NCBI RefSeq assembly: GCF_036365525.1
Contig: NC_090399.1
Span: 13,453,558-13,517,557 of the forward strand
Direction: 5' to 3'
DNA length: 64,000 nt
Source: Heterodontus francisci
Taxonomy: Eukaryota
In this document: piece after piece, positions 6,940-64,000 of the stretch
Numbering within the stretch: position 1 is the stretch's first letter
Layout of the letters: each line of letters starts with the position of its first letter
Made by a program: the position numbers and the translations under genes
The notes under the pieces: generated by a model
What the model saw: the letters and a program-made list of their open reading frames with translations, nothing else
Databases searched by the model: none
What the model was told of the DNA's origin: nothing

Positions 6940-9548
6940 TATTCACTCACTCTGTGCCAAGTTCCTGCCCTCTTTTACAGGACTGTATTATTATTATTAT
7001 TAAATATATTAAATGATCTAATATTCACTGACTCTGTGCCAAGTTCCTGCCCTCTTTTACAGAACTGTATTAATAAATACATTAAATGATCTAATATTCA
7101 CTCACCGTGCTTCTTGCTGTCTGTTACAGTACTGTTATCATTAAATATATTAAAAGATCTGATATTCACTCACCTTCTGCCCAGGTCCTGCTTTCTATTA
7201 CAGAACTGTTTTATTATTAAATATATTAAATGATCTGATATTCACTCACCTTCCCCCCAGGTCCTGCTTTCTATTACAGGACTGTTTTATTATTAAATAT
7301 ATTAAATGATCTGATATTCACTCACCTTCTCCCCAGGTCCTGCTTTCTATTACAGGACTGTTTTATTATTAAATATATTAAATGATCTGATATTCACTCA
7401 CCTTCTCCCCAGGTCCTGCTTTCTATTACAGAACTGTTTTATTATTAAATATATTAAATGATCTGATATTCACTCACCTTCTCCCCAGGTCCTGCTTTCT
7501 ATTACAGGACTGTTTTATTATTAAATATATTAAATGATCTGATATTCACTCACCTTCTCCCCAGGTCCTGCTTTCTATTACAGGACTGTTTTATTATTAA
7601 ATATATTAAATGATCTGATATTCACTCACCTTCTCCCCAGCTCCTGCTTTCTATTACAGGACTGTTTTATTATTAAACATATTTAATGATTTGATATTCA
7701 CTCACCTTCTCCCTAGGTCCTGCTTTCTATTACAGGACTGTTTTATTATTAAATATATTAAATGATTTGATATTCACTCACCTTCTCCCCAGGTCCTGCT
7801 TTCCATTACAGGACTGTTTTATTATTAAATATATTAAATGATTTGATATTCACTCACCTTCTCCCCAGGTCCTGCTTTCTATTACAGGACTGTTTTATTA
7901 TTAAATATATTTAATGATTTGATATTCACTCACCTTCTCCCCAGGTCCTGCTTTCTATTACAGGACTGTTTTATTATTAAATATATTAAATGATTTGATA
8001 TTCACTCACCTTCTCCCCAGGTCCTGCTTTCTATTACAGGACTGTTTTATTATTAAATATATTAAATGATTTGATATTCACTCACCTTCTCCCCAGGTCC
8101 TGCTTTCTATTACAGGACTGTTTTATTATTAAATATATTAAATGATTTGATATTCACTCACCTTCTCCCCAGGTCCTGCTTTCTATTACAGGACTGTTTT
8201 ATTATTAAATATATTAAATGATTTGATATTCACTCACCTTCTCCCCAGGTCCTGCTTTCTATTACAGGACTGTTTTATTATTAAATATATTAAATGATTT
8301 GATATTCACTCACCTTCTCCCCAGGTCCTGCTTTCTATTACAGGACTGTTTTATTATTAAATATATTAAATGATCTGATATTCACTCACCTTCTCCCCAG
8401 GTCCTGCTTTCTATTACAGGACTGTTTTATTATTAAATATATTTAATGATCTGATATTCACTCACCTTCTGCCCAGGTCCTGCTTTCTATTACAGGACTG
8501 TTTTATTATTAAATATATTTAATGATATGATATTCACTCACCTTCTCCCCAGGTCCTGCTTTCTATTACAGGACTGTTTTATTATTAAATATATTTAATG
8601 ATCTGATATTCACTCACCTTCTCCCCAGGTCCTGCTTTCTATTACAGGACTGTTTTATTATTAAATATATTAAATGATTTGATATTCACTCACCTTCTCC
8701 CCAGGTCCTGCTTTCTATTGCAGGACTGTTTTATTATTAAATATATTTAATGATCTGATATTCACTCACCTTCTCCCCAGGTCCTGCTTTCTATTACAGG
8801 ACTGTTTTATTATTAAATATATTAAATGATCTGATATTCACTCACCTTCTCCCCAGGTCCTGCTTTCTATTACAGGACTGTTTCATTATTAAATATATTA
8901 AATGATCTGATATTCACTCACCTTCTCCCCAGGTCCTGCTTTCTATTACAGGACTGTTTTATTATTAAATATATTTAATGATTTGATATTCACTCACCTT
9001 CTCCCCAGGTCCTGCTTTCTATTACAGGACTGTTTTATTATTAAATATATTAAATGATTTGATATTCACTCACCTTCTCCCCAGGTCCTGCTTTCTATTA
9101 CAGGACTGTTTTATTATTAAATATATTTAATGATTTGATATTCACTCACCTTCTCCCCAGGTCCTGCTTTCTATTACAGGACTGTTTTATTATTAAATAT
9201 ATTAAATGATTTGATATTCACTCACCTTCTCCCCAGGTCCTGCTTTCTATTACAGGACTGTTTTATTATTAAATATATTAAATGATCTGATATTCACTCA
9301 CCTTCTCCCCAGGTCCTGCTTTCTATTACAGAACTGTTTTATTATTAAATATATTAAATGATTTGATATTCACTCACCTTCTCCCCAGGTCCTGCTTTCT
9401 ATTACAGGACTGTTTTATTATTAAATATATTAAATGATCTGATATTCACTCACCTTCTCCCCAGGTCCTGCTTTCTATTACAGGACTGTTTTATTATTAA
9501 ATATATTAAATGATCTGATATTCACTCACCTTCTCCCCAGGTCCTGCT
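6940..9548. repeat. 76-bp tandem array (~31 near-identical copies at 7163-9548, plus ~3 degenerate copies at 6940-7160) spanning the exon/intron junction of the SAPCD2-like gene
   Basis: Unit TATTCACTCACCTTCTCCCCAGGTCCTGCTTTCTATTACAGGACTGTTTTATTATTAAATATATTAAATGATYTGA; period 76 (7391 to 7467). The last unit runs directly into coding sequence at 9530. Confidence 0.95.
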
Positions 9549-9941
9549 GTCTGTCGTTGGTTTTTCGGTCCCCTTCGCCCCCGGGTCCCTTTGCTCGGAG
9601 CTGCCCAGGGGTGAGCGGTCGTATGGTCGCTGCTCCTGCCCGGCTCCCGGACCCTGGCTCTCGCTTTCTTGCTGCAGCGCCGTCCTGATGCCGGCCAGCA
9701 GGCGGGGGAAGGTGAGCCGGCCGGAGGGCGCTGCCACTCGGCGGAGGCAAGGCATCAGCCCGGGCGGCAGGGCCGGCTCCCGGCTGCTTTCCCCCCGCCA
9801 GCGGCTCTCGATCTCCCGCAGGTCCACCGAGCCGCGACCCTCCTGGTCCAGGATGTCGAAGAGGGTCCGCAGGCTGAGCAGGAAAGTGCGGGGCAGGCAG
9901 CGCTGCTGCTCCCGGGGCTGGGCCGGCTCTGCCCGGCTCAT
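9530..9941 (-). CDS. SAPCD2: First coding exon of a suppressor APC domain-containing protein (SAPCD2-like)
   Basis: Peptide LPRTFLLSLRTLFDILDQEGRGSVDLREIESRWRG...LPPGLMPCLRRVAAPSGRLTFPRLLAGIRTAL closely resembles the SAPCD2 N-terminal domain as I recall it (LPRAFLQSLRTLFDILD...VHLREIESRWQG...LTFERFVAGLRTSL). ATG at 9941; phase-1 donor AAG|GTGAGT at 9530/9529; GC/CpG-rich. Downstream exons not identified; SAPCD1 vs SAPCD2 orthology unresolved. Confidence 0.8.
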
Positions 9942-10604: not shown

Positions 10605-13600
10605 CCCAGAGGGGGAAAGGACAGTGTCTGACCCACTGCCCCACCCAATCCCACAGTGGGGAAAGGACAGTGTCTGACCCACTGCCCACCCAGTCCCAGA
10701 GTGGGGAAAGGACAGTGTCTGACCCACTGCCCCACCCAGTTCCAGAGGGGGAAAGGACAGTGTCTGACCCACTGCCCACCCAGTCCCAGAGTGGGGAAAG
10801 GACAGTGTCTGACCCACTGCCCCACCCAGTTCCAGAGGGGGAAAGGACAGTGTCTGACTCACTGCCCACTCAGTCCCAGAGGGAGGAAAGGACAGTGTCT
10901 GACCCACTGCCCCATCCAGTCCCAGACAGGAAAAGGATAGTGTCTGACCCACTGCCCACTAAGTCCCAGAGGGGGAAAGGACAGTGTCTGAACCACTGCC
11001 CACTCAGTCCCAGAGAGGGAAAGGATAGTGTCTGACCCACTGCCCACTCAGTTCCAGAGGGAGGAAAGGACAGTGTCTGACCAACTGCCCGCTCAGTCCC
11101 AGAGAGGGAAAGGACAGCGTCTGAACCACTGCCCACTCAGTCCCAGAGGGGGAAAGGACAGTGTCTGACCCACCGCCCACTCAGTCCCAGAGAGGGAAAG
11201 GACAGTGTCTGACCCACTGCACCACCCAGTCCCAGAGGGGGGAAAGGACAGTGTCTGATCCATTGCATCACCCACTCCCAGAGGGGGAAAGGACAGTGTC
11301 TGACTCACTGCCCCACCCAGTGCAAGAGGAGGGAAAGGACATTGACTGACCCACTGCCCCACTCACTCCCAGAGGGGGGAAAGGACAGTGTCTGATCCAT
11401 TGCATCACCCACTCCCAGAGGGGGAAAGGACAGTGTCCGACCCATAGCCCCACCCAGTCACAGAGAGTGAAAGGACAGTGTCTGACCCACTGCCCACCCA
11501 TCCCAGAGGAGGAAAGGACAGTGTCTGACCCACTGCCCAACCCAGTCCCAGAGGTAGGAAAGCACTGTGTCTGACCCACTTCCCACCCAGTCCCAGAGGG
11601 AGGAAAGGACAGTGCCTGACCCACTGTCCCTCACAGTCCCAGAGGGGGGAAAGGACAGTGTCTGACCCACTGTCCCTCACAGTCCCAGAGGGTTAAAAGA
11701 CAGTGTCTGACCCACTGTCCCACCCAGTCCCAGAGGGGGGAAAGGACAGTGTCTGTCCCACTGCCACAACCAGTCCCAGTGGAGGAAAAGACAGTGTCTG
11801 ACCCACTGCACCACCAAGTCCCAGAGGGGGAAAGGACAGTGTCTGAGCCACTGCCCCACCCAGTCCCAGAGGGGGAAAGGACAGTGTCTGACCCACTGCA
11901 CCGCCCAGTCCCGGAGGGGGAATGGACAGTGTCTGACCCACTGTCCCACCCAGTCCCAGAGGTGGAAAAGACCGTCTCTGTCCTACTGTACTACCCTGTC
12001 CCGGAGGGGGAAAAGACCGTCTCTGACCCACTGTACCACCCAGTCCAGGAGGGGGAAAGGACAGTGTCTGACCCACTGCCCCACCCAGTGCCAGAGGAGG
12101 GAAAGGACAGTGTCTGATCCACTGCATCACCCACTCCCAGAGGGGGAAAGGACAGTGTCCGACCCACTGCCCCACCCAGTCACAGAGAGTGAAAGAACAG
12201 TGTCTGACCCACTGCCCACCCAGTCCCAGAGGGGGAAAGGACATTGTCTTACCCACTGCCCCACCCAGTTGCAAAGGGGTAAGGACAGTGTCTGACCCCC
12301 TGCCCCACCCAGTCCCAGAGGGGGAAAGGACAGTGTCTGACCCACTGCCCCACCCAGTCCCAGAGGGGGAACGGACAGTGTCTGACCCACTGCATCACCC
12401 AGTCCCAGAGGGAGGAACCGACAGTGTCTGACCCACTGTCCCACCCAGTCACGGAGGGGGAAAGGACAGTGTCTGACCCACTGTCCCACCCAGTCCCAGA
12501 GGTGGAAAAGACCGTCTCTGACCCACTGTACCATCCATTCCCGGAGGGAGAAAGGACAGTGTCTGAACCACTGTCCCACCCAGTCCCAGAGGGGGAAAGG
12601 ACAGAGTCTGACCCACTGTACACTCAGTCCCAGAAGGGGGATGAAAAGTGTCTGACCCACTGCCACACACAGTCCCAGAGGGGAAAAGACAGTGTCTGTC
12701 CCACTGCCCCACCCAGTCCCAGAGGGGGAAAGGACAGTGTCTGACCCACTGTCTCACGCGGTCCCAGAGGAGGAAAAGACAGTGTCTGACCCACAGTCTC
12801 ACCCAGTCCCGGAGGGGGAAAGGACAGTGTCTGACCCACTGCCCCACCCAGTCCCAGAGGGGGAAAGGACAGTGTCTGTCCCACTGCCCCACCAGTCCCA
12901 GAGGAGGAAAGGACAGTGTCTGACCCACTGTCTCATCCAGTCCCAGAGGGGGAGAAGACCGTCTCTGACCCCTGTCCCACCCAGTCCCAGAGGAGGAAAA
13001 GACAGTGTCTGACCCACTGCACCAGCCAGTCCCAGAGTAGGAAAGGACAGTGTCTGACCCACTGCATCACCCAGTCCTAGAGGAGGAAAGGACAGTGTCT
13101 GACCCACTGCATCACCCAGTCCTGGAGGAGGAAAGGACAGTGTTTGACCCACTGCACCACCCAATCCCAGAGGAGGAAAGGAAAGTGTCTGACCCACTTC
13201 CCCACCCACACCCAGAGTGGGAGAGTACAGTGTCTGACCCACTGCATCACCCAGTCCCAGAGGAGGAAAGGACAGTGTCTGACCCACTGTCCCACCCAGT
13301 CCCAGAGGTGGAAAAGACCGTCTCTGACCCACTGTACCATCCATTCCCGGAGGGAGAAAGGACAGTGTCTGAACCACTGCATCACCCAGTCCTGGAGGAG
13401 GAAAGGACAGTGTTTGACCCACTGCACCACCCAATCCCAGAGGAGGAAAGGAAAGTGTCTGACCCACTTCCCCACCCACACCCAGAGTGGGAGAGTACAG
13501 TGTCTGACCCACTGCATCACCCAGTCCCAGAGGAGGAAAGGACAGTGTCTGACCCACTGTCCCACCCAGTCCCAGAGGTGGAAAAGACCGTCTCTGACCC

Positions 13601-16600
13601 ACTGTACCATCCATTCCCGGAGGGGGAAAGGACAGTGTCTGACCCACTGTCCCACCCAGTCCCAGAGGTGGAAAAGACCGTCTCTGACCCACTGTACCAT
13701 CCATTCCCGGAGGGAGAAAGGACAGTGTCTGAACCACTGTCCCACCCAGTCCCAGAGGGGGAAAGGACAGAGTCTGACCCACTGTACACTCAGTCCCAGA
13801 AGGGGGATGAAAAGTGTCTGACCCACTGCCACACACAGTCCCAGAGGGGAAAAGACAGTGTCTGTCCCACTGCCCCACCCAGTCCCAGAGGGGGAAAGGA
13901 CAGTGTCTGACCCACAGTCTCACCCAGTCCCGGAGGGGGAAAGGACAGTGTCTGACCCACTGCCCCACCCAGTCCCAGAGGGGGAAAGGACAGTGTCTGT
14001 CCCACTGCCCCACCAGTCCCAGAGGAGGAAAGGACAGTGTCTGACCCACTGTCTCATCCAGTCCCAGAGGGGGAGAAGACCGTCTCTGACCCCTGTCCCA
14101 CCCAGTCCCAGAGGAGGAAAAGACAGTGTCTGACCCAATGCACCAGCCAGTCCCAGAGTAGGAAAGGACAGTGTCTGACCCACTGCATCACCCAGTCCTA
14201 GAGGAGGAAAGGACAGTGTCTGACCCACTGCATCACCCAGTCCTGGAGGAGGAAAGGACAGTGTTTGACCCACTGCACCACCCAATCCCAGAGGAGGAAA
14301 GGAAAGTGTCTGACCCACTTCCCCACCCAGACCCAGAGTGGGAGAGTACAGTGTCTGACCCACTGCATCACCCAGTCCTAGAGGAGGAAAGGACAGTGTC
14401 TGACCCACTGCACCACCCAGTCCCAGAGGGAGGAAAGGACAGTGTCTGACCCACTGCACCACCCAGTCCCAGAGGGAGGAACGGACAGTGTCTGACCCAC
14501 TGCCCCACCCAGTGCCAGAAGAGGGAAAGGACAGTGTCTGACCCACTGCACCACCCAGGCCCAGAGGGAGTAAAGGACAGTGCCTGACCCACTGCCCCAA
14601 CCAGTCCCAGTGGAGGAAAAGACAGTGTCTGACCCACTGCACCACCAAGTCCCAGAGGGGGAAAGGACAGTGTCTGACCCACTGCACCGCCCAGTCCCAG
14701 AGGGGAGAAAGGACAGTGTCTGAGCCACTGCCCCACCCAGTCCCAGAGGGGGAAAGAACAGTGTCTGACCCACTGCACCGCCCATTCCCGGAGGGGGAAT
14801 GGACAGTGTCTGACCCACTGCCCCACCCAGTCCCGGGGGGGGGGGGGAAAGGACAGTGTCTGACCCACTATCCCATCCAGTCCCAGAGGTGGAAAAGACC
14901 GTCTCTGTCCTACTGTACTACCCTGTCCCGGAGGGGGAAAAGACCGTCTCTGACCCACTGTACCACCCAGTTCCGGAGGGGGAAAGGACAGTGTCTGACC
15001 CACTGCCCCACTCACTCCCAGAGGCGGGAAAGGACAGTGTCTGATCCACTGCATCACCCATTCCCAGAGGGGGAAAGGACAGTGTCTGACCCACTGCCCC
15101 ACCCAGTCACAGAGAGTGAAAGAACAGTGTCTGACCCACTGCCCACCCAGTCCCAGAGGGGGAAAGGACATTGTCTTACCCACTGCCCCACCCAGTTGCA
15201 GAGGGGTAAGGACAGTGTCTGACCCCCTGCCCCACCCAGTCCCAGAGGGGGAAAGGACAGTGTCTGACCCCCTGCCCCACCCAGTCCCAGAGGGGGAAAG
15301 GACAGTGTCTGACCCACTGCCCCACCCAGTCCCAGAGGGGGAAAGGACAGTGTCTGACCCACTGCCCCACCCAGTCCCAGAGGGAGGAAAGGACTGTGTC
15401 TGACCCACTGTCCCACCCATTCCCAGAGGGTTAAAAGACAGTGTCTGACCCACTGTCCCACCCAGTCACGGAGGGGGAAAGGACAGTGTCTGACCCACTG
15501 TCCCACCCAGTCCCAGAGGAGGAAAAGACCGTCTCTGACCCACTGTACCACTCATTCCCGGAGGGAGAAAGGACAGTGTCTGAACCACTGTCCCACCCAG
15601 TCCCAGAGGGGGAACCGACAGAGTCTGACCCACTGTACACTCAGTCCCAGAGGGGGGATGAAAAGTGTCTGACCCACTGCCACACACAGTCCCAGAGGGG
15701 AAAAGACAGTGTCTGTCCCACTGCCCCACCCAGTCCCAGAGGAGGAAAGGACAGTGTCTGACCCACTGTCTCACGCGGTCCCAGAGGAGGAAAAGACAGT
15801 GTCTGACCCACAGTCTCACCCAGTCCCATGAGGGAGAAGACAATGTCTGACCCACTGCCCCATCCAGTCCCAGAAGGGGAAAGGACAGTGTCTGTCCCAC
15901 TGCCCCACCCAGTCCCAGAGGGGGAAAGGACAGTATCTGTCCCACTGCCCCAACCAGTCCCAGCGGAGGAAAAGACAATGTTTGACCCACTGCCCAACTC
16001 CCTCCCAGAGGGGGAAAGGACAGTGTCTGACCCACTGCCCCACCCAGTCCCAGAGGGGGAAAGGACAGTGTCTGACCCACTGCACCACCCAGTCCAGAGG
16101 GAGGAAAGGACAGTGTCTGACCCACTGCCCTGCCCAGTCACAGGGGGAGAAAGGACAGTGTCTGACCCACTGCTCACCCAGTCCCAGAGAGGGAAAGGGC
16201 ATTGTCTGACCCACTGCACCACCAAGTCCCAGAGGGAGGAAAGGACAGTGTCTGACCCACTGCACCACCCAGTCCCAGAGGGAGGAAAGGAAAGTGTCTG
16301 ACCCACTGCCCCACCCAGTGCCAGAGGAGGGAAAGGACAGTGTCTGACCCACTGCACCACCCAGGCCCAGAGGGTGGAAAGGATAGTGTCTGACCCACTG
16401 CACCACCCAGTCCCAGAGGGAGGAAAGGACAGTGCCTGACCCACTGCCCTGCCCAGTCACAGAGGGAGAAAGGACAGTGTCTGACCCACTGCTCACCCAG
16501 TGCCAGAGGAGGGAAAGGGCAGTGTCTGACCCACTGCACCACCCAGTCCCAGAGGGAGGAAAGGACAGTGTCTGACCCACTGCACCACCCAGTCCCAGAG

Positions 16601-18595
16601 GGAGGAAAGGAAAGTGTCTGACCCACTGCCCCACCCAGTGCCAGAGGAGGGAAAGGACAGTGTCTGACCCACTGCACCACCCAGGCCCAGAGGGAGGAAA
16701 GGACAGTGTCTGAACCACTGCACCACCCAGTCCCTGAGGGAGGAAAGGACAGTGCCTGACCCACTGCCCTGCCCAGTCACAGAGGGAGAAAGGACAGTGT
16801 CTGACCAACTGCTCACCCAGTCCCAGAGAGGGAAAGGACAGTGTCTGACCCACTGCCCCTCCCAGTCCCAGAGGGGGAAAGGACTGTGTCTGACCCATTG
16901 CCCCACCCAGTCCCAGAGGGGGTAAGGACAGTGTCTGACCCACTGCACCGCCCAGTCCCAGAGGGGGGAAAGGACTGTGTCTGACCCATTGCCCCACCCA
17001 GTCCCAGAGGGGGAAAGGACAGTGTCTGACCCACTGCCCTACCCAGTCCCAGAGGGGGAAAAGACTGTGTCTGACCCACTGCCCCACCCAGTCCCAGAGG
17101 AGGAAAGGACAGTGTCTGACCCACTGCCCCACCCAGTCCCAGAGGGGGGAAAGGACAGTGTCTGATCCACTGCATCACCAAGTCCCAGTGTTGGAAAGGA
17201 CAGTGTCTGACCCACTGCCCCACACAGTCCCAGAGGGGGAAAGGACAGTGTCTGACCCACTGCACCACCCAGTCCCAGAGGGAGGAAAGGACAGTGTCTG
17301 ATCCACTGCATCACCCACTCCCAGAGGGGGAAAGGACAGTGTCCGACCCACTGCCCCACCCTGTCCCAGAGGGGGGAAAGGACAGTGTCTGACCCACTGC
17401 ACCACCCAGTCCCAGAGGGAGGAAAGGACAGTGTCTGATCCACTGCATCACCCAGTCCCGGAGGGGGAATGGACAGAGTCTGACCCACTGCAGCGCCCAG
17501 TCCCAGAGGGGGGAAACGACAGTGTCTGACCCACTGCTCCACCCAGTCCCAGAGGGGGGAAAGGACAGTGTCTGACCCACTGTCCCACCCAGTCCCAGAG
17601 GGGGAAAGGACAGTGTCTGACCCACAGTCCCACCCTCTCCCAAAGGGGGAAAGGACATTATCTGTCCCACTGCCCCACTCAGTCCCAGAGAGGAAAAGGA
17701 AAGTGCCTGACTCACTGTCTCACCCAGTCCCAGAGGGGGAAAGGACAGTGTCTGACCCACTGCCCCACCCAGTCCCAGAGGGGGAAAGGACAGTGTCTGT
17801 CCCACTGCCCCACCCATTCCCGGAGGGGGAAAGGACAGTGTCTGACCCACAGCCCCACCCAGTCCCAGAGGGGGAAAGGACAGTGTCTGTCCCACTGCCC
17901 CACCAGTCCCAGAGGAGGAAAAGACAGTGTCTGACCCACTGCCCCACCCAGTCCCAGAGGGGGAAAGGACAGTGTCTGTCCCACTGCCCCACCCATTCCC
18001 AGAGGGGGAAAGGACAGTGTCTGACCCACTGTCTCATCCAGTCCCAGAGGGGGAGAAGACCGTCTCTGACCCCTGTCCCACCCAGTCCCAGAGGAGGAAA
18101 AGACAGTGTCTGACCCACTGCACCAGCCAGTCCCAGAGTAGGAAAGGACAGTGTCTGACCCACTGCATCACCCAGTCCTAGAGGAGGAAAGGACAGTGTC
18201 TGACCCACTGCATCACCCAGTCCTGGAGGAGGAAAGGACAGTGTTTGACCCACTGCACCACCCAATCCCAGAGGAGGAAAGGAAAGTGTCTGACCCACTT
18301 CCCCACCCAGTCCCAGAGTGGGAGAGTACAATGTCTGACCCACTGCATCACCCAGTCCCAGAGGAGGAAAGGACAGTGTCTGACCCACTGCACCACCCAA
18401 TCCCAGAGGAGGAAAGGAAAGTGTCTGACCCACTGCACCACCCAGTCCCAGAGTGGGAGAGTACAGTGTCTGACCCACTGCATCACCCAGTCCCAGAGGG
18501 GGAGAGTACAGTGTCTGACCCACTGCATCACCCAGTCCCAGAGGAGGAAAGGACAGTGTCTGACCCACTTCCCCACCCAATCCCAGAGGGGGAAT
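10605..18595. repeat. ~8-kb GC-rich satellite, 44-46-bp unit, ~175 copies, with higher-order block duplications
   Basis: Consensus CCCAGAGGGGGAAAGGACAGTGTCTGACCCACTGCCCCACCCAGT; period 45 (15241 to 15286). Confidence 0.95.
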
Positions 18596-18989
18596 GGCGA
18601 GTGTTTTATCCTTCACACCATCCAGTCTCTCTCTTAGTGTGTACGTTCTGAAACTAGTTGCATGGACTTTCCAATGCAATGGCAGAGCTTGATTGACTCA
18701 TTTGCCCCTTTTTCATTCGTCAACTAATTCCAAAATCAATGGTTCACAATTTGTCCTCAAGAAATGTGATTGTCCGCTTGGTCTTTGAACAATAGCAACA
18801 AGCCAACCTTGAAATAAATGGGCTAATTTATTTTTTGTCCAATTTTGTGTTCAGTTAATTCTTTGTGTTCTTCTTGTTTTTTTGTTAAAGCAGACAGAAA
18901 ATTTTCAGAATACTTCTCGTTCTGAGATATCATCAAGAACTTGCATTTATATAGAACCTTAATACATCACAAGGCACTTTGTGGGAAAC

Positions 18990-52365: not shown

Positions 52366-52722
52366 CTATTTGCAGCTGGTGTACTTGGTGACCGCCTTTG
52401 TGCCCTCGGAGATGGCGTGCTTGGCCAGCTCCCCCGGCAGCAGGAGGCGGACGGCGGTCTGGATCTCCCTGGAGCAGAGGGTCTGCTTTTTGCCATAGTG
52501 GACTAGGCGGGAGGCCTCGCAGACGATGCAGTCCAAGATGTCGCTGACGAACGAGTTGAGGACGCTCATGGCCACGGCAGAGATGCTGCTGCCGGGGTGG
52601 ACCTGCTTCAGCACCCTGTGGATGTAGATGCTGAAACTCTCCTTCCGTACCCGCCTGCGCTTCCTCTCGCCTTTGGCCCGCTTCTGGGGCACCACTTTCT
52701 TTGGCCCCTTCTTGGGGGCCAT
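52366..52722 (-). CDS. H2B: Histone H2B, highly divergent variant (118 aa, 4 Cys)
   Basis: MAPKKGPKK...[18 protein letters not shown]...[34 protein letters not shown]; intronless, with 3' stem-loop. Confidence 0.93.
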
Positions 52723-54820: not shown

Positions 54821-55237
<417 letters not shown>

Positions 55238-59689: not shown

Positions 59690-60911
59690 GCATAGCAGTG
59701 CCTCATCAGACCCCTTTCCTATCCTGAGTGGCGTGAAACAGGGCTGTGTTCTCACACCTACACAGTTTGGGATCTTCTTCTCTCTGCTGCCCTCAACATG
59801 CGTTCAAGTCTTTAGAAGAAGGAATTTTCTTCCACACAAGATCAGGTGACAGGTTGTTCAACCTTGCCCGTCTAAGAGCGAAGACCAAAGTACGGAAAGT
59901 CCTCATCAGGGAACTCCTCTTTGCTGACGTTGCTGCATTAACATCTCACACTGAAGAGTGTCTGCAGAGACTCATCGACAGGATTGCGGCTGCCTGCAAC
60001 GAATTTGGCCTAACCATCAGCCTCAAGAAAATGAACATCATGGGACAGGACATCAGAAATGCTCCATCCATCAATATCGGCGACCACGCTCTGGAAATGG
60101 TTCAAGAGTTCACCTACCTAGGCTCAGTTATCACCAGTAACCTGTCTCTCGATGCAGAAATCAACAAGCGCATGGGAAATGCTTCCACTGCCATGTCCAG
60201 ACTGGCCAAGAGAGTGTGAGAAAATGGCGCACTGACACGGAACACAAAAGTCCGAGTGTATCCAGACTGTGTCCTCTGTACCTTGCTCTACGGCAGCGAG
60301 GCTTGGACAACGTATGTCAGCCAAGAGCGACGCCTCAATTCATTCCATCTTCGCTGCCTCCGGAGAATCCTTGGCATCAGGTGGCAGGACCGTATCTCCA
60401 ACACAGAAGTCCTTGAGGCGGCCAACATCCCCAGCATTACACCCTACTGAGTCAGCAGCGTTTGAGATGGCTTGGCCATGTGAGCCACATGGAAGATGGC
60501 AGGATCCCCAAGGACACATTGTACAGCGAGCTCGTCACTGGTATCAGACCCACCAGCCGTCCATGTCTCCGCTTTAAAGACGCCTGCAAACGCGACATGA
60601 AGTCCTGTGACATTGATCACAAGTCATGGGAGTCAGTTGCCAGTGATCGCCAGAGCTGGTGGGCAGCCATAAAGGCGGGGCTGAAGAGTGGCGAGTCGAA
60701 GAGACTTAGCTGTTGGCAGGAAAAAGACAGAAGCGCAAGGGGAGAGCCAACTGTGTAACAGCTCCGACAACCAACTTTATCTGCAGCACCTATCGAAGAG
60801 TCTGTTAGTCTAGAATTGGCCTTTATAGCCACTCCAGGCGTTGCTTCACAAACCACTGACCACTTCCAGGCGCTTACCCATTGTCTCTCGAGCCAAGGAG
60901 GCCAAAGAAGA
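59690..60911 (+). mobile_element. RTE-clade LINE 3' portion
   Basis: IRELLFAD(V)AAL, EFTYLGS, LDAEINKRMG, LYGSEAWT, RWLGHVSHMEDGRIPK. Confidence 0.9.
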
Positions 60912-61349
60912 CACCTTCAAAAATACTTGGAAACGTCTTGAAAGGCGATATAAAATTGCAAGACTTTTCGAAAAAATATTGGCCTACTTCAGTTCAAGAA
61001 GGTGAGTGTCAATTGGATTGAAAGTTTAGTTTGCATTAGTGCGTATCATGGATGCAAGCGTCCAGGGAGTGAGGGGTGATGGTGGGATTTAAGATTTGAA
61101 ATATGCAAGCAAACGGGACGTTTACATTATTCTATATATTTTGCAGTCACAGCGAGGAAGCTGCAAAGCGCCCCTTCCCTGGGAGCACGCGCCGGCTCTG
61201 CCCGTGGGAGGACTCGCCTCTAAAACGTCCGCCTTGAGCTTTGAAAAGGCGCCGCCGCCGCCGCCCGCTCGGCAGCTTCGGTCCCCGCGGCGAGGAGGGC
61301 GGAGCAGCCGCTGGGGAAGAGAAGGCAAGGCGCCGCCGGCAGCAACCAA

Positions 61350-62000
61350 ATGGCTTCGGGTGATCTGGCCGAAGGCCCCACCCGAGGCAGGAAGCCGAGG
61401 AAGCGGAGGGTCCCGCCCAAGCTGCGGCAGGTGGGCGCGCCCACCATGGCCGGGCACATCCTGGAAGCGGTGTCGTCTTCCCGGGAGCGTCGCGGCCTGT
61501 CGCTGGCCGGCGTCAAGAAGGCGCTGTCGGCCGCCGGCTACGACGTGCCGCGGATCAACTCGCGGGTGAACCAGGCGGTCCGGAACCTGGTGAACGAAGG
61601 CTCGCTGCTGCAAACGGCGGGCACCGGGGCCTCGGGCTCCTTCAAGATCAACCGGCAGCGCCAGGACATTCAGAGCCGCCCGGCCCTCACTGCCACCGCC
61701 CCCCGGGGCGGGCAGCAGAGGGCGGCCGCCAGCGGCGGCACCGCTAAGAGGGAGAAGAAGAGGATCCCCGCCGAGAAGAACAAGCCGGTCAGGCGGAAGA
61801 AGAACGGCACCGCCGGCGGCCGGCGAAAGGCCGCGAAGGGAACCGGCGGCAGGACCGGTCCCCGGAGGGGGGTCGGGCGGCCCAGGAAAGCAGCCAGGGA
61901 GCCGGCGCCAGACGCCGGTCCGCCCGGTGGGCAGGAGGCCGAGCAACAGCCGGGAGGGGAAAGCAGTTCCGAGGGCACCGTCCAAGGCGGGAAACCCTGA
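61350..62000 (+). CDS. H1: Linker histone H1, arginine-rich divergent variant (216 aa)
   Basis: Winged-helix core PTMAGHILEAVSSSRERRGLSLAGVKKALSAAGYDV...SRVNQAVRNLVNEGSLLQTAGTGASGSFKIN; intronless, with 3' stem-loop. Confidence 0.92.
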   Translation: MASGDLAEGPTRGRKPRKRRVPPKLRQVGAPTMAGHILEAVSSSRERRGLSLAGVKKALSAAGYDVPRINSRVNQAVRNLVNEGSLLQTAGTGASGSFKINRQRQDIQSRPALTATAPRGGQQRAAASGGTAKREKKRIPAEKNKPVRRKKNGTAGGRRKAAKGTGGRTGPRRGVGRPRKAAREPAPDAGPPGGQEAEQQPGGESSSEGTVQGGKP

Positions 62001-62042
62001 GGGCGGAATCCGAGTGTGAAATATATCAAAGTGAACAAAAAA

Positions 62043-62058
62043 GGCTCTTTTCAGAGCC
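62043..62058 (+). terminator. Histone 3' stem-loop of H1, with HDE
   Basis: GGCTCTTTTCAGAGCC-ACCAC, then AAAAGAG at ~62072. Confidence 0.95.
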
Positions 62059-62489
62059 ACCACCACCTTCAAAAAGAGAAATCAATATAAATAAACTTTA
62101 GTGCTGTTGCAAAAGGGGACAAATATTATTATTGGCTGAAATGCTACTTTAGAGTCACCGCACCCTTAAAATGATGCACTAAATGTCAGCTTCAGAATAA
62201 TTGTTGCTTCAGTTCCAACTTTATTGATTGACATTTTGAAGATTAACTCGAGAATTTTGACAGCAAAGCATCTTCACCCTTGAGCATTTTGGACCTTTGG
62301 AACAGGCTGCCGGCATCGAGAAACGGTCTGCATGTTGAAATTAGTCAGAGAATGAAATAATGGCAAAAATAGTCCGCAGTTATTGAAGTTGTCTGCAGCT
62401 ATGAGTTGGAATTTCGTCGGAGTTCATGCTCCCCATAAATGCATCCTGCCCCCTTCTTTTACCTCACTCTCACTTTTACTGCGGCGAGT

Positions 62490-62770
62490 AACTCATCTCG
62501 TCAAAGCCTGTCCACCATCTACAAGGCACGAGTCAGGAGTGTGATGGAATACCCTCCATAGTCTGGATGGGTGCAGTTCCAACAACACTCAAGAAGCTCG
62601 ACACCATCCAGGAGAAAGCAGCCCATATGATCGGTACCCCCTCCACCACCTTCAACTTTCACTCTCTCCAGTGTGTATCACCCACAAGATGCACTGCAGC
62701 AACTCGTCAAGATTTCGATGGGCATTAGGGATGGGCAATAAATACTGACCGTCAGTGATACCCAGATCTT
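62490..62770 (+). mobile_element. LINE 3' fragment (family of 35980-39190)
   Basis: ctgtccaccatctacaaggcacgagtcaggagtgtgatggaatac..., the reverse complement of ~36410-36545. Confidence 0.7.
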
Positions 62771-63298
62771 GAGAACTTTATTTCAAAGGCCAAAGTAGCT
62801 GCGGTTCAATATTTGTGTGGTATGTAATGACGGCTTTTAGTAAATAGCTATTACTACAATGGCATTTCTGAGAGCGAGGATAGAAAATGACCTGGATTTT
62901 ACTCTTCGGCAATCTCCTTCGCCGTTTCTGGGACCAGTCTAACTTGATTATGTAGGGGAGCTCCGGGATCTTTGTGGCTCGAATGAATTCACTTTGCATT
63001 AGCTTACGGCCTGAAGGCATGTCACATGAGGGAATGAGATTTAATAATTAAACGAAATATAACTTTGCTGCGGGATTTTGATCCCGTGGCAGCGGCTCCT
63101 GACAACTAAAAAATTAAGTGGTATCTTACCGTGATTTGTGCAGACTGAACATGGGGTACATTAAGGATTAGTCAATTGGAATTGATGATTTGGTATCCTT
63201 CATTAGCATAAAACTGAGTACATCAGGGCGGAGCTGGGGGTGTCATTTTTTTTTTAATGAACTCGTCAACGTTCAAGGGGAATTTGAAGAGTTTTGCA

Positions 63299-63706
63299 AT
63301 GCCGACCGCTGCTGTTTCCACCAGTGCCACGACCGCCGGCGCCAAAGGCGCCGTTTCCAAGAAAGGGTCCAAGAAAACGGCGATGAAAATGTCCAGGAAG
63401 GGCGACAAGAAGCACCGGAGGAGCCGGAAGGAGAGCTACAGCATCTACATCTACAAGGTGCTGAAGCAGGTCCACCCCGACACGGGCATCTCCTCCAAGG
63501 CCATGAGTGTCATCAACTCCTTCGTCAACGACATCTTCGAGCGCATATCCTGCGAGGCTTCCCGCCTGGTCCATTACACCAGGCGCCAGACCATCTCCTC
63601 CAGGGAGATCCAGAGCGCCGTCCGCCTCCTGCTGCCGGGGGAACTGGCCAAGCACGCCGTCTCCGAGGGCACAAAGGCGGTCACCAAATACACCAGCTCC
63701 AAGTAG
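63299..63706 (+). CDS. H2B: Histone H2B, variant with extended N-tail (135 aa)
   Basis: [26 protein letters not shown]...[27 protein letters not shown]...AVTKYTSSK; octamer-like ATTAGCAT at ~63202. Confidence 0.95.
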
Positions 63707-63755
63707 AGCCCCAGAAAGAAACTTGCAATTACTTGACAGTAGAAAACCGTCCAAC

Positions 63756-63771
63756 GGCTCTTTTAAGAGCC
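63756..63771 (+). terminator. Histone 3' stem-loop of H2B variant 2
   Basis: CCAAC-GGCTCTTTTAAGAGCC-AC. Confidence 0.93.
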
Positions 63772-64000
63772 ACTTAACAAGGTCTGAACGTGGGGCTATT
63801 AATCGTGTCTAACTTAGCAAAATACGACAATGTCAGATTCCTGAGTTAACTCAATAGTTAAGCATGAATCCACCATCTACCTGCAGCCGATAACTAGCTG
63901 GGGACTTTTGCCCATAGATGTAGATGATCCACTGTATCGCTTCTTGCAAGACAGTTTTTCGTTTCCTGGGTTTAATACTCTGCTGAGAGTGCTCTCCCTG

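Follow-up and report, generated by a model that had tools for sequence, protein, structure and literature searches.

The question raised by this locus is what kind of linker histone it encodes. Near the right end of the window (the whole stretch of 64,000 nucleotides analysed here, from contig NC_090399.1 of the shark Heterodontus francisci), one open reading frame (ORF) specifies a histone H1 domain followed by an arginine-rich tail, a motif resembling an AT-hook and an acidic end. A first-pass annotation had taken the product to be H1t-like or protamine-like, with the layout of an HMGA protein. The parts of the gene, in window positions, are as follows.

61350..62000, + strand: intronless H1 variant gene, ORF of 216 amino acids (ORF list, RefSeq models)
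61350..61430, + strand: N-terminal arm, residues 1-27, with the basic cluster RGRKPRKRR (sequence)
61440..61652, + strand: winged-helix globular domain, residues 31-101, replication-dependent type (Pfam, PDB sequences, structure model)
61569..61571, + strand: Asn74, at the position of K69 of GH5/H1.0, DNA site I (alignment)
61617..61619, + strand: Ala90, at the position of K85 of GH5/H1.0, in the wing, a dyad contact (alignment; passages of PMC2685081 and PMC1963316)
61656..61745, + strand: low-charge Ala/Gly/Gln linker, residues 103-132 (sequence)
61746..61898, + strand: basic block, residues 133-183, 10 Lys and 12 Arg (sequence)
61860..61889, + strand: PRRGVGRPRK, AT-hook-like GRP motif whose RGR lacks its first Arg
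61899..61997, + strand: net-acidic Gly/Pro/Glu end, residues 184-216, net charge -5 (sequence)
62043..62058, + strand: histone 3′ stem-loop, 42 nt past the stop codon (Rfam Histone3)
62073..62078, + strand: AAAGAG, likely core of the histone downstream element
62090..62095, + strand: AATAAA, possible poly(A) signal, present in this copy and missing from the second copy

The composition described by the first-pass annotation held on recounting. The 216 residues include 29 Arg versus 17 Lys, with 15 Asp and Glu; S/T-P-x-K repeats are absent, as is any S/T-P dipeptide; and PRRGVGRPRK occupies residues 171-180. The acidic end is also there: the last 33 residues contain six acidic and one basic residue, and their net charge was reached by 4 of 100,000 shuffles of the C-terminal domain, although with 6 acidic residues in 33 the acidity is mild. 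Pfam Linker_histone (PF00538) matches residues 31-101 at 60.4 bits (cut-off 22.4, E = 2e-16), and beyond residue 108 the predicted model has low pLDDT and no secondary structure. The C-terminal tail is net +18, weaker than usual for a linker histone. At 37.4 bits, against a gathering score of 34 for Rfam Histone3, the stem-loop agrees with the claim of a stem-loop gene. RefSeq has two 'histone H1-like' models here, XP_067865055.1 for this copy, with additional sequence at the N terminus, and XP_067865277.1 for the second.

We conclude that ORF 61350-62000 is a genuine shark gene, intact and coding for an unusual linker histone. The contrary reading, that it is an ordinary Lys-rich H1 altered by a frameshift or an assembly error, draws on the frameshift-made acidic ends that occur in bulk-type H1 copies L008, L012, L026, L085 and L086; we give it next to no chance. 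The other frames of the tail are poor in Lys (3 in 120 codons and 0 in 29), and the second genomic copy has the identical frame. Contigs from four runs of one sample contain both copy types and no indel in the ORF, with the qualification that the RNA status of these runs is guessed and that the sample is possibly the assembled individual. Run contigs X1-X3 cover most of 61233-62531, X4 is one 198-nt piece, and 60900-61232 is covered by none. The artefact reading is refuted because orthologues conserve the frame and the acidic end, both of which are common to eight other shark species.

The best database match is a Heterodontus francisci model that is 99% identical, and orthologues are present in Hemiscyllium, Chiloscyllium, Stegostoma, Carcharodon, Cetorhinus, two Scyliorhinus species and Heptranchias. 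These chondrichthyan models (XP_041068338.1, XP_038671872.1, XP_067829793.1, XP_060707147.1 and others), which share frame, domain and acidic end, are named 'histone H1-like' automatically. In the open literature, mostly at the level of titles and abstract openings, we found no paper describing these genes, and none mentions any of six of their accessions or locus ids. Together with the stem-loop, the orthologues bear out the earlier view of a real, conserved H1 variant of non-somatic type on a stem-loop gene. Read in the +1 frame, the acidic end (window 61899-62019) gives RPVGR, which resembles the C-terminal motif of several cluster paralogues and arises in 0.5% of synonymous recodings, a post hoc figure. 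The acidic tail may have originated by an ancient frameshift, though Glu codons give Lys or Arg in the +1 frame anyway.

Overall identity to the relatives in the eight other species is 54-68%, while in the globular domain it is 72-92% for six shark rows of our tree and 85-92% among galeomorph sharks. All nine shark species retain the acidic end. In every one of the ten proteins P0001-P0010 the net charge of the final 33 residues lies between 0 and -5, as it does in 1 of 106 other H1 matches. Arg share in the orthologues is 0.55-0.73, versus a median of 0.09 and a maximum of 0.36 in those 106. Two clade members are exceptions: a second Hemiscyllium model, whose read-through end is basic, and a short protein from Mobula.

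Both the domain identity among galeomorph sharks and the retention of the acidic end speak against a dispensable minor paralogue that owes its excess of Arg, Gly, Ala and Pro to GC-biased substitution and to weakened constraint on the tail, a possibility that we regard as improbable. In its favour, coding GC is 72% (GC3 0.88) versus 52-54% in bulk H1, the other five H1 genes measured on the same contig (C29) lie at 68-73%, and the cluster has decaying members (a stop in L006, four genes with degenerate domains and the short Mobula orthologue). GC-driven drift is thus a partial rival, but the two H1.0 genes keep Lys at GC3 0.75-0.80, with an Arg share of just 0.10-0.11. In addition, of the 10 base differences that separate the two copies and the run contigs from one another, 7 are silent versus 28% expected (p=0.007, by a crude site count that ignores transition bias and pools paralogue with allele differences).

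The globular domain bears on the lineage of the protein. Scores against solved structures are 71-81 bits for H1.1-H1.4 and chicken GH1, 38 for H1x and 23-27 for H1.0/H5; domain identity is 53-62% to clustered H1 (55-62% to that of bony vertebrates) and 22-31% to H1.0. The predicted domain superposes on H1.1 and H1.2 at an rmsd of 1.3 Å, and Foldseek fold matches lie at 1.3-1.8 Å. Judged by these comparisons, the domain is of the clustered, replication-dependent type, nearer to H1.1-H1.5 than to any of H1.0, H1x and H1oo. The top long matches of a 50%-cluster search (P0139-P0144) are multi-domain or fused bony-vertebrate models and were rejected as tail-sharing relatives.

Our tree had 38 rows and 74 columns, was rooted on a shark H1oo-like gene and contained one H1t row; PL-I and H1x were left out, near-duplicates were thinned, and three long branches of the first tree were dropped (Hfr_C3_L084, Hfr_C29_L096 and Hfr_C29_L034deg). 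The orthologues form a starred clade of eight rows (support 96/89), nested in a starred 21-row clade of cartilaginous fish that includes shark, ray and chimaera (96/93). The shark variants group with bony-vertebrate H1 at 94/97 (unstarred, with long branches), and Oryx H1t groups with amniote H1 (95/90), in agreement with the first tree. Forcing the orthologues with H1t was rejected in an AU test (p=0.0098), and on the one H1t row in the tree we reject H1t orthology. Forcing them with the long-branched H1.0 pair was not rejected (p=0.12); this result and the 74-column alignment temper the support for the lineage.

What survives of 'H1t-like' is a fair analogy. H1t (H1.6) and the shark variant are both clustered genes with a replication-dependent-type domain, a raised Arg share and lower charge (0.21 per residue in Oryx H1t), and low nucleosome affinity is a likely functional parallel, the shark protein being predicted to bind weakly. 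H1t differs in having basic residues at K69 and K85 and a basic end, none of which the shark variant has. Clustered H1 (human H1.1-H1.5, chicken GH1, bony-fish H1) gives the best PDB sequence and fold matches and is like the shark gene, which is intronless, has a stem-loop and lies in a histone cluster. The shark variant departs from it in having more Arg than Lys, half the net charge, an acidic end, no K69 and K85 equivalents and no AC box. The Lys-rich tail with S/T-P-x-K of somatic clustered H1 is missing, with 0 motifs in Heterodontus and 0-4 in orthologues.

The contact residues had escaped the first-pass annotation. Using H1.0 numbering mapped through the gap-free alignment of the tree rows, we found that the K69 equivalent is Asn and the K85 equivalent is Ala in 8 of 8 orthologue rows. 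Site I is traditionally K69, R73 and K85 (passages of PMC2685081), and K85 is placed at the dyad (passages of PMC1963316). Positions K73, R42, R94 and K97 stay basic, and the linker-DNA face, site II (R47, K99, R102), is still basic as well. A basic residue occupies K85 in 0 of 24 scorable clade proteins versus 102 of 102 other H1s, and K69 in 1 of 24 versus 100 of 102, with four unscorable rows in each set. Since amplified bulk H1s of the same shark (C21/C45b) also lack K85, with Ser in its place, that loss alone is tolerated in a presumably ordinary H1.

The H1 variant has gained Arg while losing charge. Its Arg share is 0.63 and its net charge per residue 0.14, whereas three bulk H1 genes of this shark have values of 0.10-0.16 and 0.26-0.28, and Lys+Arg make up 21% of residues versus 28-29% in two mammalian somatic H1s. 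Arg may hold DNA more tightly per residue, so that the lower net charge does not necessarily mean weaker binding. The fold is intact, two of three site-I residues are lost, the tail charge is halved and the acidic end is conserved.

The AT-hook-like motif is less constant. Its canonical central RGR is missing here because Val precedes GRP, and RGRP stands at this position in 2 of 9 species. In a single sequence the motif is just modestly above chance, since bare GRP occurs in 27% of tail shuffles and GRP[RK][RK] in 1.6%. Loss of the motif in orthologues, which the first-pass annotation had named as a refuting outcome, is partly the case: GRP[RK][RK] is found at the homologous place in 4 of 9 species, as VGRP in Heterodontus and Heptranchias and as a perfect RPRGRPRK in Carcharodon and Cetorhinus, and GRP is absent from the other five (three carpet sharks and two catsharks), where the acidic end is still there. 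Among 28 clade proteins, nine have GRP[RK][RK] in their tails (including a chimaera paralogue and two rays) versus 1 of 106 other H1s, with per-protein shuffle rates of 0.2-6%; thus the motif is old in the clade, yet not required in this subtype. A Pfam AT_hook scan hit 0 of 16 aligned relatives, missing even three with a perfect RPRGRPRK, and is too insensitive to count either way. The Tupaia H1t model P0143 has a tail RVGRPK that resembles the shark motif; as Oryx H1t lacks it, the resemblance is probably chance.

These data bear on the claimed HMGA layout. Like HMGA1/2, the shark H1 has a GRP-core motif upstream of a negatively charged end, and like plant GH1-HMGA proteins, in which an H1 globular domain is joined to AT-hooks, it combines the two kinds of element. 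An architectural factor of either type would use the hook to target AT-rich DNA and the acidic tail for tuning. The enrichment of GRP[RK][RK] in the clade and the perfect RPRGRPRK of two species are points in favour, and the core is flanked by basic residues, as in a loose definition of the hook (passages of PMC11354804). However, the central RGR is stressed for minor-groove binding, and it is the first Arg, which enters the groove, that Val replaces here (passages of PMC11354804 and PMC7279267). GRP occurs once in 216 residues instead of as three hooks, it is lost in five species that retain the acidic end, and that end is much less acidic than in HMGA2, which has three hooks and whose 15-residue end includes 8 acidic residues (passages of PMC7279267). 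We consider such a factor unlikely and reject HMGA membership: with a single, non-canonical hook and mild acidity the resemblance is loose.

A protamine-like nature fared no better. Like PL-I of Mullus and bivalves, the variant has a winged-helix domain and Arg-enriched arms, and its Arg residues outnumber Lys and are clustered. Protamines are often produced by cleavage of PL precursors (passages of PMC13251019), and in a sperm-condensing protein or precursor of the PL-I type the acidic end would be a cleavable pro-piece; the unrejected H1.0 grouping of the AU test is a further point in its favour. Against this, PL precursors are related to replication-independent H5 (passages of PMC13251019) and PL-I arms carry more basic residues (passages of PMC4584325), whereas the shark variant is less basic, with arms not more basic than those of somatic H1 (net 0.14 per residue versus 0.25-0.28), half the net charge of bulk H1, a replication-dependent-type domain at low identity to H1.0, and a stem-loop gene located in a cluster. 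The chance that it is a PL-I-type protein is slim, and we reject PL-I membership; nor does the variant look like an intermediate of the H1-to-protamine transition, on which it had been thought potentially informative.

The reading that we favour, with about an even chance of being right, is that the gene represents a conserved shark subtype of clustered H1, predicted to be a weak nucleosome binder that keeps chromatin loose, likely in germ cells or similar specialised cells. The globular domain would dock at the nucleosome entry/exit with a poor grip at the dyad, and the short Arg block would neutralise less linker DNA. The acidic end may fold back on the basic block and lower affinity further, as proposed for the HMGA tail. 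Such a protein would take H1 sites without compacting them, leaving chromatin open, and the GRP motif may provide extra minor-groove contacts in some lineages and be dispensable in others.

Germ-cell use is likely by analogy and composition. H1T has a less tight hold on nucleosomes and favours an open chromatin state, and the divergent, poorly compacting H1 variants of mammals are testis proteins (passages of PMC12751476). Given the match to the reported behaviour of H1T, the likeliest setting is the chromatin of meiotic cells or early spermatids, and H1t's mammalian job would have been reached independently in sharks. This reading is tempered by the Arg-rich erythrocyte histone H5, in which Arg is presumed to raise compaction (passages of PMC4584325). 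Passages of a catshark testis proteomics study name no H1 (PMC13052469).

H5 is also a somatic protein (passages of PMC4584325), and the weak-binding subtype might work in somatic cells instead of the germ line, for example as a non-dividing or broadly expressed replacement H1. Consistent with this, proximal GC boxes lie upstream of the gene, and there is no AC box within 400 nt upstream, while all three bulk H1 genes compared carry theirs at -151/-152. The AC box is an S-phase element. The downstream element AAAGAG is shorter and weaker, since those three bulk genes continue with a CTG that is missing here, AATAAA lies past the stem-loop, and contigs in 3 of 4 runs, whose RNA status is guessed, extend about 470 nt beyond it. 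However, the second copy lacks AATAAA, and the mammalian counterparts in divergence and poor compaction are the testis proteins mentioned above. We think somatic use a minor prospect.

The setting of the gene was likewise missed at first: the H1 variant lies in a variant-histone cluster on the MHC chromosome. Its histone neighbours in the window are as follows.

52366..52722, - strand: divergent H2B gene, same cluster
54821..55132, - strand: H4-like gene, same cluster
63257..63706, + strand: divergent H2B gene, duplicated together with the H1 variant

The second copy of the H1 and its adjoining H2B is inverted and lies 350 kb off (C29:13163315-13163542, L001). Over 990 bases the two copies differ at 6 positions (99.4% identity), with 2 amino acids changed, and since the identity is limited to the genes (window 61104-62093 and 63283-64000), the sequences suggest recent duplication or gene conversion. 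In 120 + 144 kb of contig C29, we counted 21 stem-loop matches, 20 with an upstream histone ORF and nine H1-like; about 150 kb between the two scanned stretches lies outside this count, and two further H1-like genes come in addition. Both MHC class II alpha matches map to C29, as do 59 of 64 class I matches; the closest lies some 19 Mb off. Human histone genes sit in the extended class I region (passages of PMC12619710), and the word 'histone' is absent from the main text of a shark MHC paper (PMC10751288). Bulk Lys-rich H1 genes lie elsewhere (C45, C21, C28 and others), and the genome has at least 150 H1 matches among about 700 candidates.

Other H1 genes of this genome have features of their own. 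The next H1 paralogue on C29, L006 (domain at C29:13518732-13518944), is interrupted by a stop at codon 178, beyond which an acidic tail continues in frame; this downstream tail resembles that of the Carcharodon relative P0146, and L006 is a recently truncated gene. Four stem-loop H1-like genes on C29, near 13208620, 13233043, 13548328 and 13590131, have a domain degenerate in its second half and end in RPVGRK. L013 (C29:13173496) is an Arg-rich H1 without a stem-loop match past its stop, and in the H1 gene L096 a Gly/Arg-rich insertion interrupts the wing. Bulk H1s L005, L014, L053 and L085 (C21, C45, C28) diverge from bony-vertebrate H1 more than the C29 variants do. Bulk-type copies with frameshift-made acidic repeat ends (L008, L012, L026, L085, L086 and L092) are probably pseudogene arrays on unplaced contigs. 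Elsewhere in the window, 9522-9941 (- strand) is the first exon of a SAPCD-like gene (Pfam SAPC2_N), SAPCD1 being a human MHC class III gene, and a long degenerate tandem-repeat array at about 11700-18700 gives spurious ORFs on both strands.

A wider model, which we hold tentatively and think rather less probable than not, starts from an ancestral histone cluster on the MHC chromosome that corresponds to the H1 genes of bony vertebrates. Before sharks and chimaeras diverged, this cluster would have given rise to five or more specialised H1 subtypes, with a separate H1 lineage amplified for bulk use. The gene described here would be a self-damped member, with the dyad grip removed, DNA binding shifted to the Arg block with its tunable GRP hook, and the acidic end serving as a brake within the molecule, which would prime the chromatin of germ cells for the removal of histones. 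On this model it would constitute a second, independent H1t-like system in vertebrates.

The diversity of vertebrate H1 subtypes is known chiefly from mammals, and sharks add an old parallel set. Their natural losses of the two best-studied DNA-contact lysines, combined with an acidic end, are ready variants with which to study what dyad contacts and tail charge contribute to the affinity of H1. If germ-line use is true, a chromatin-loosening H1 would have arisen twice from clustered genes.
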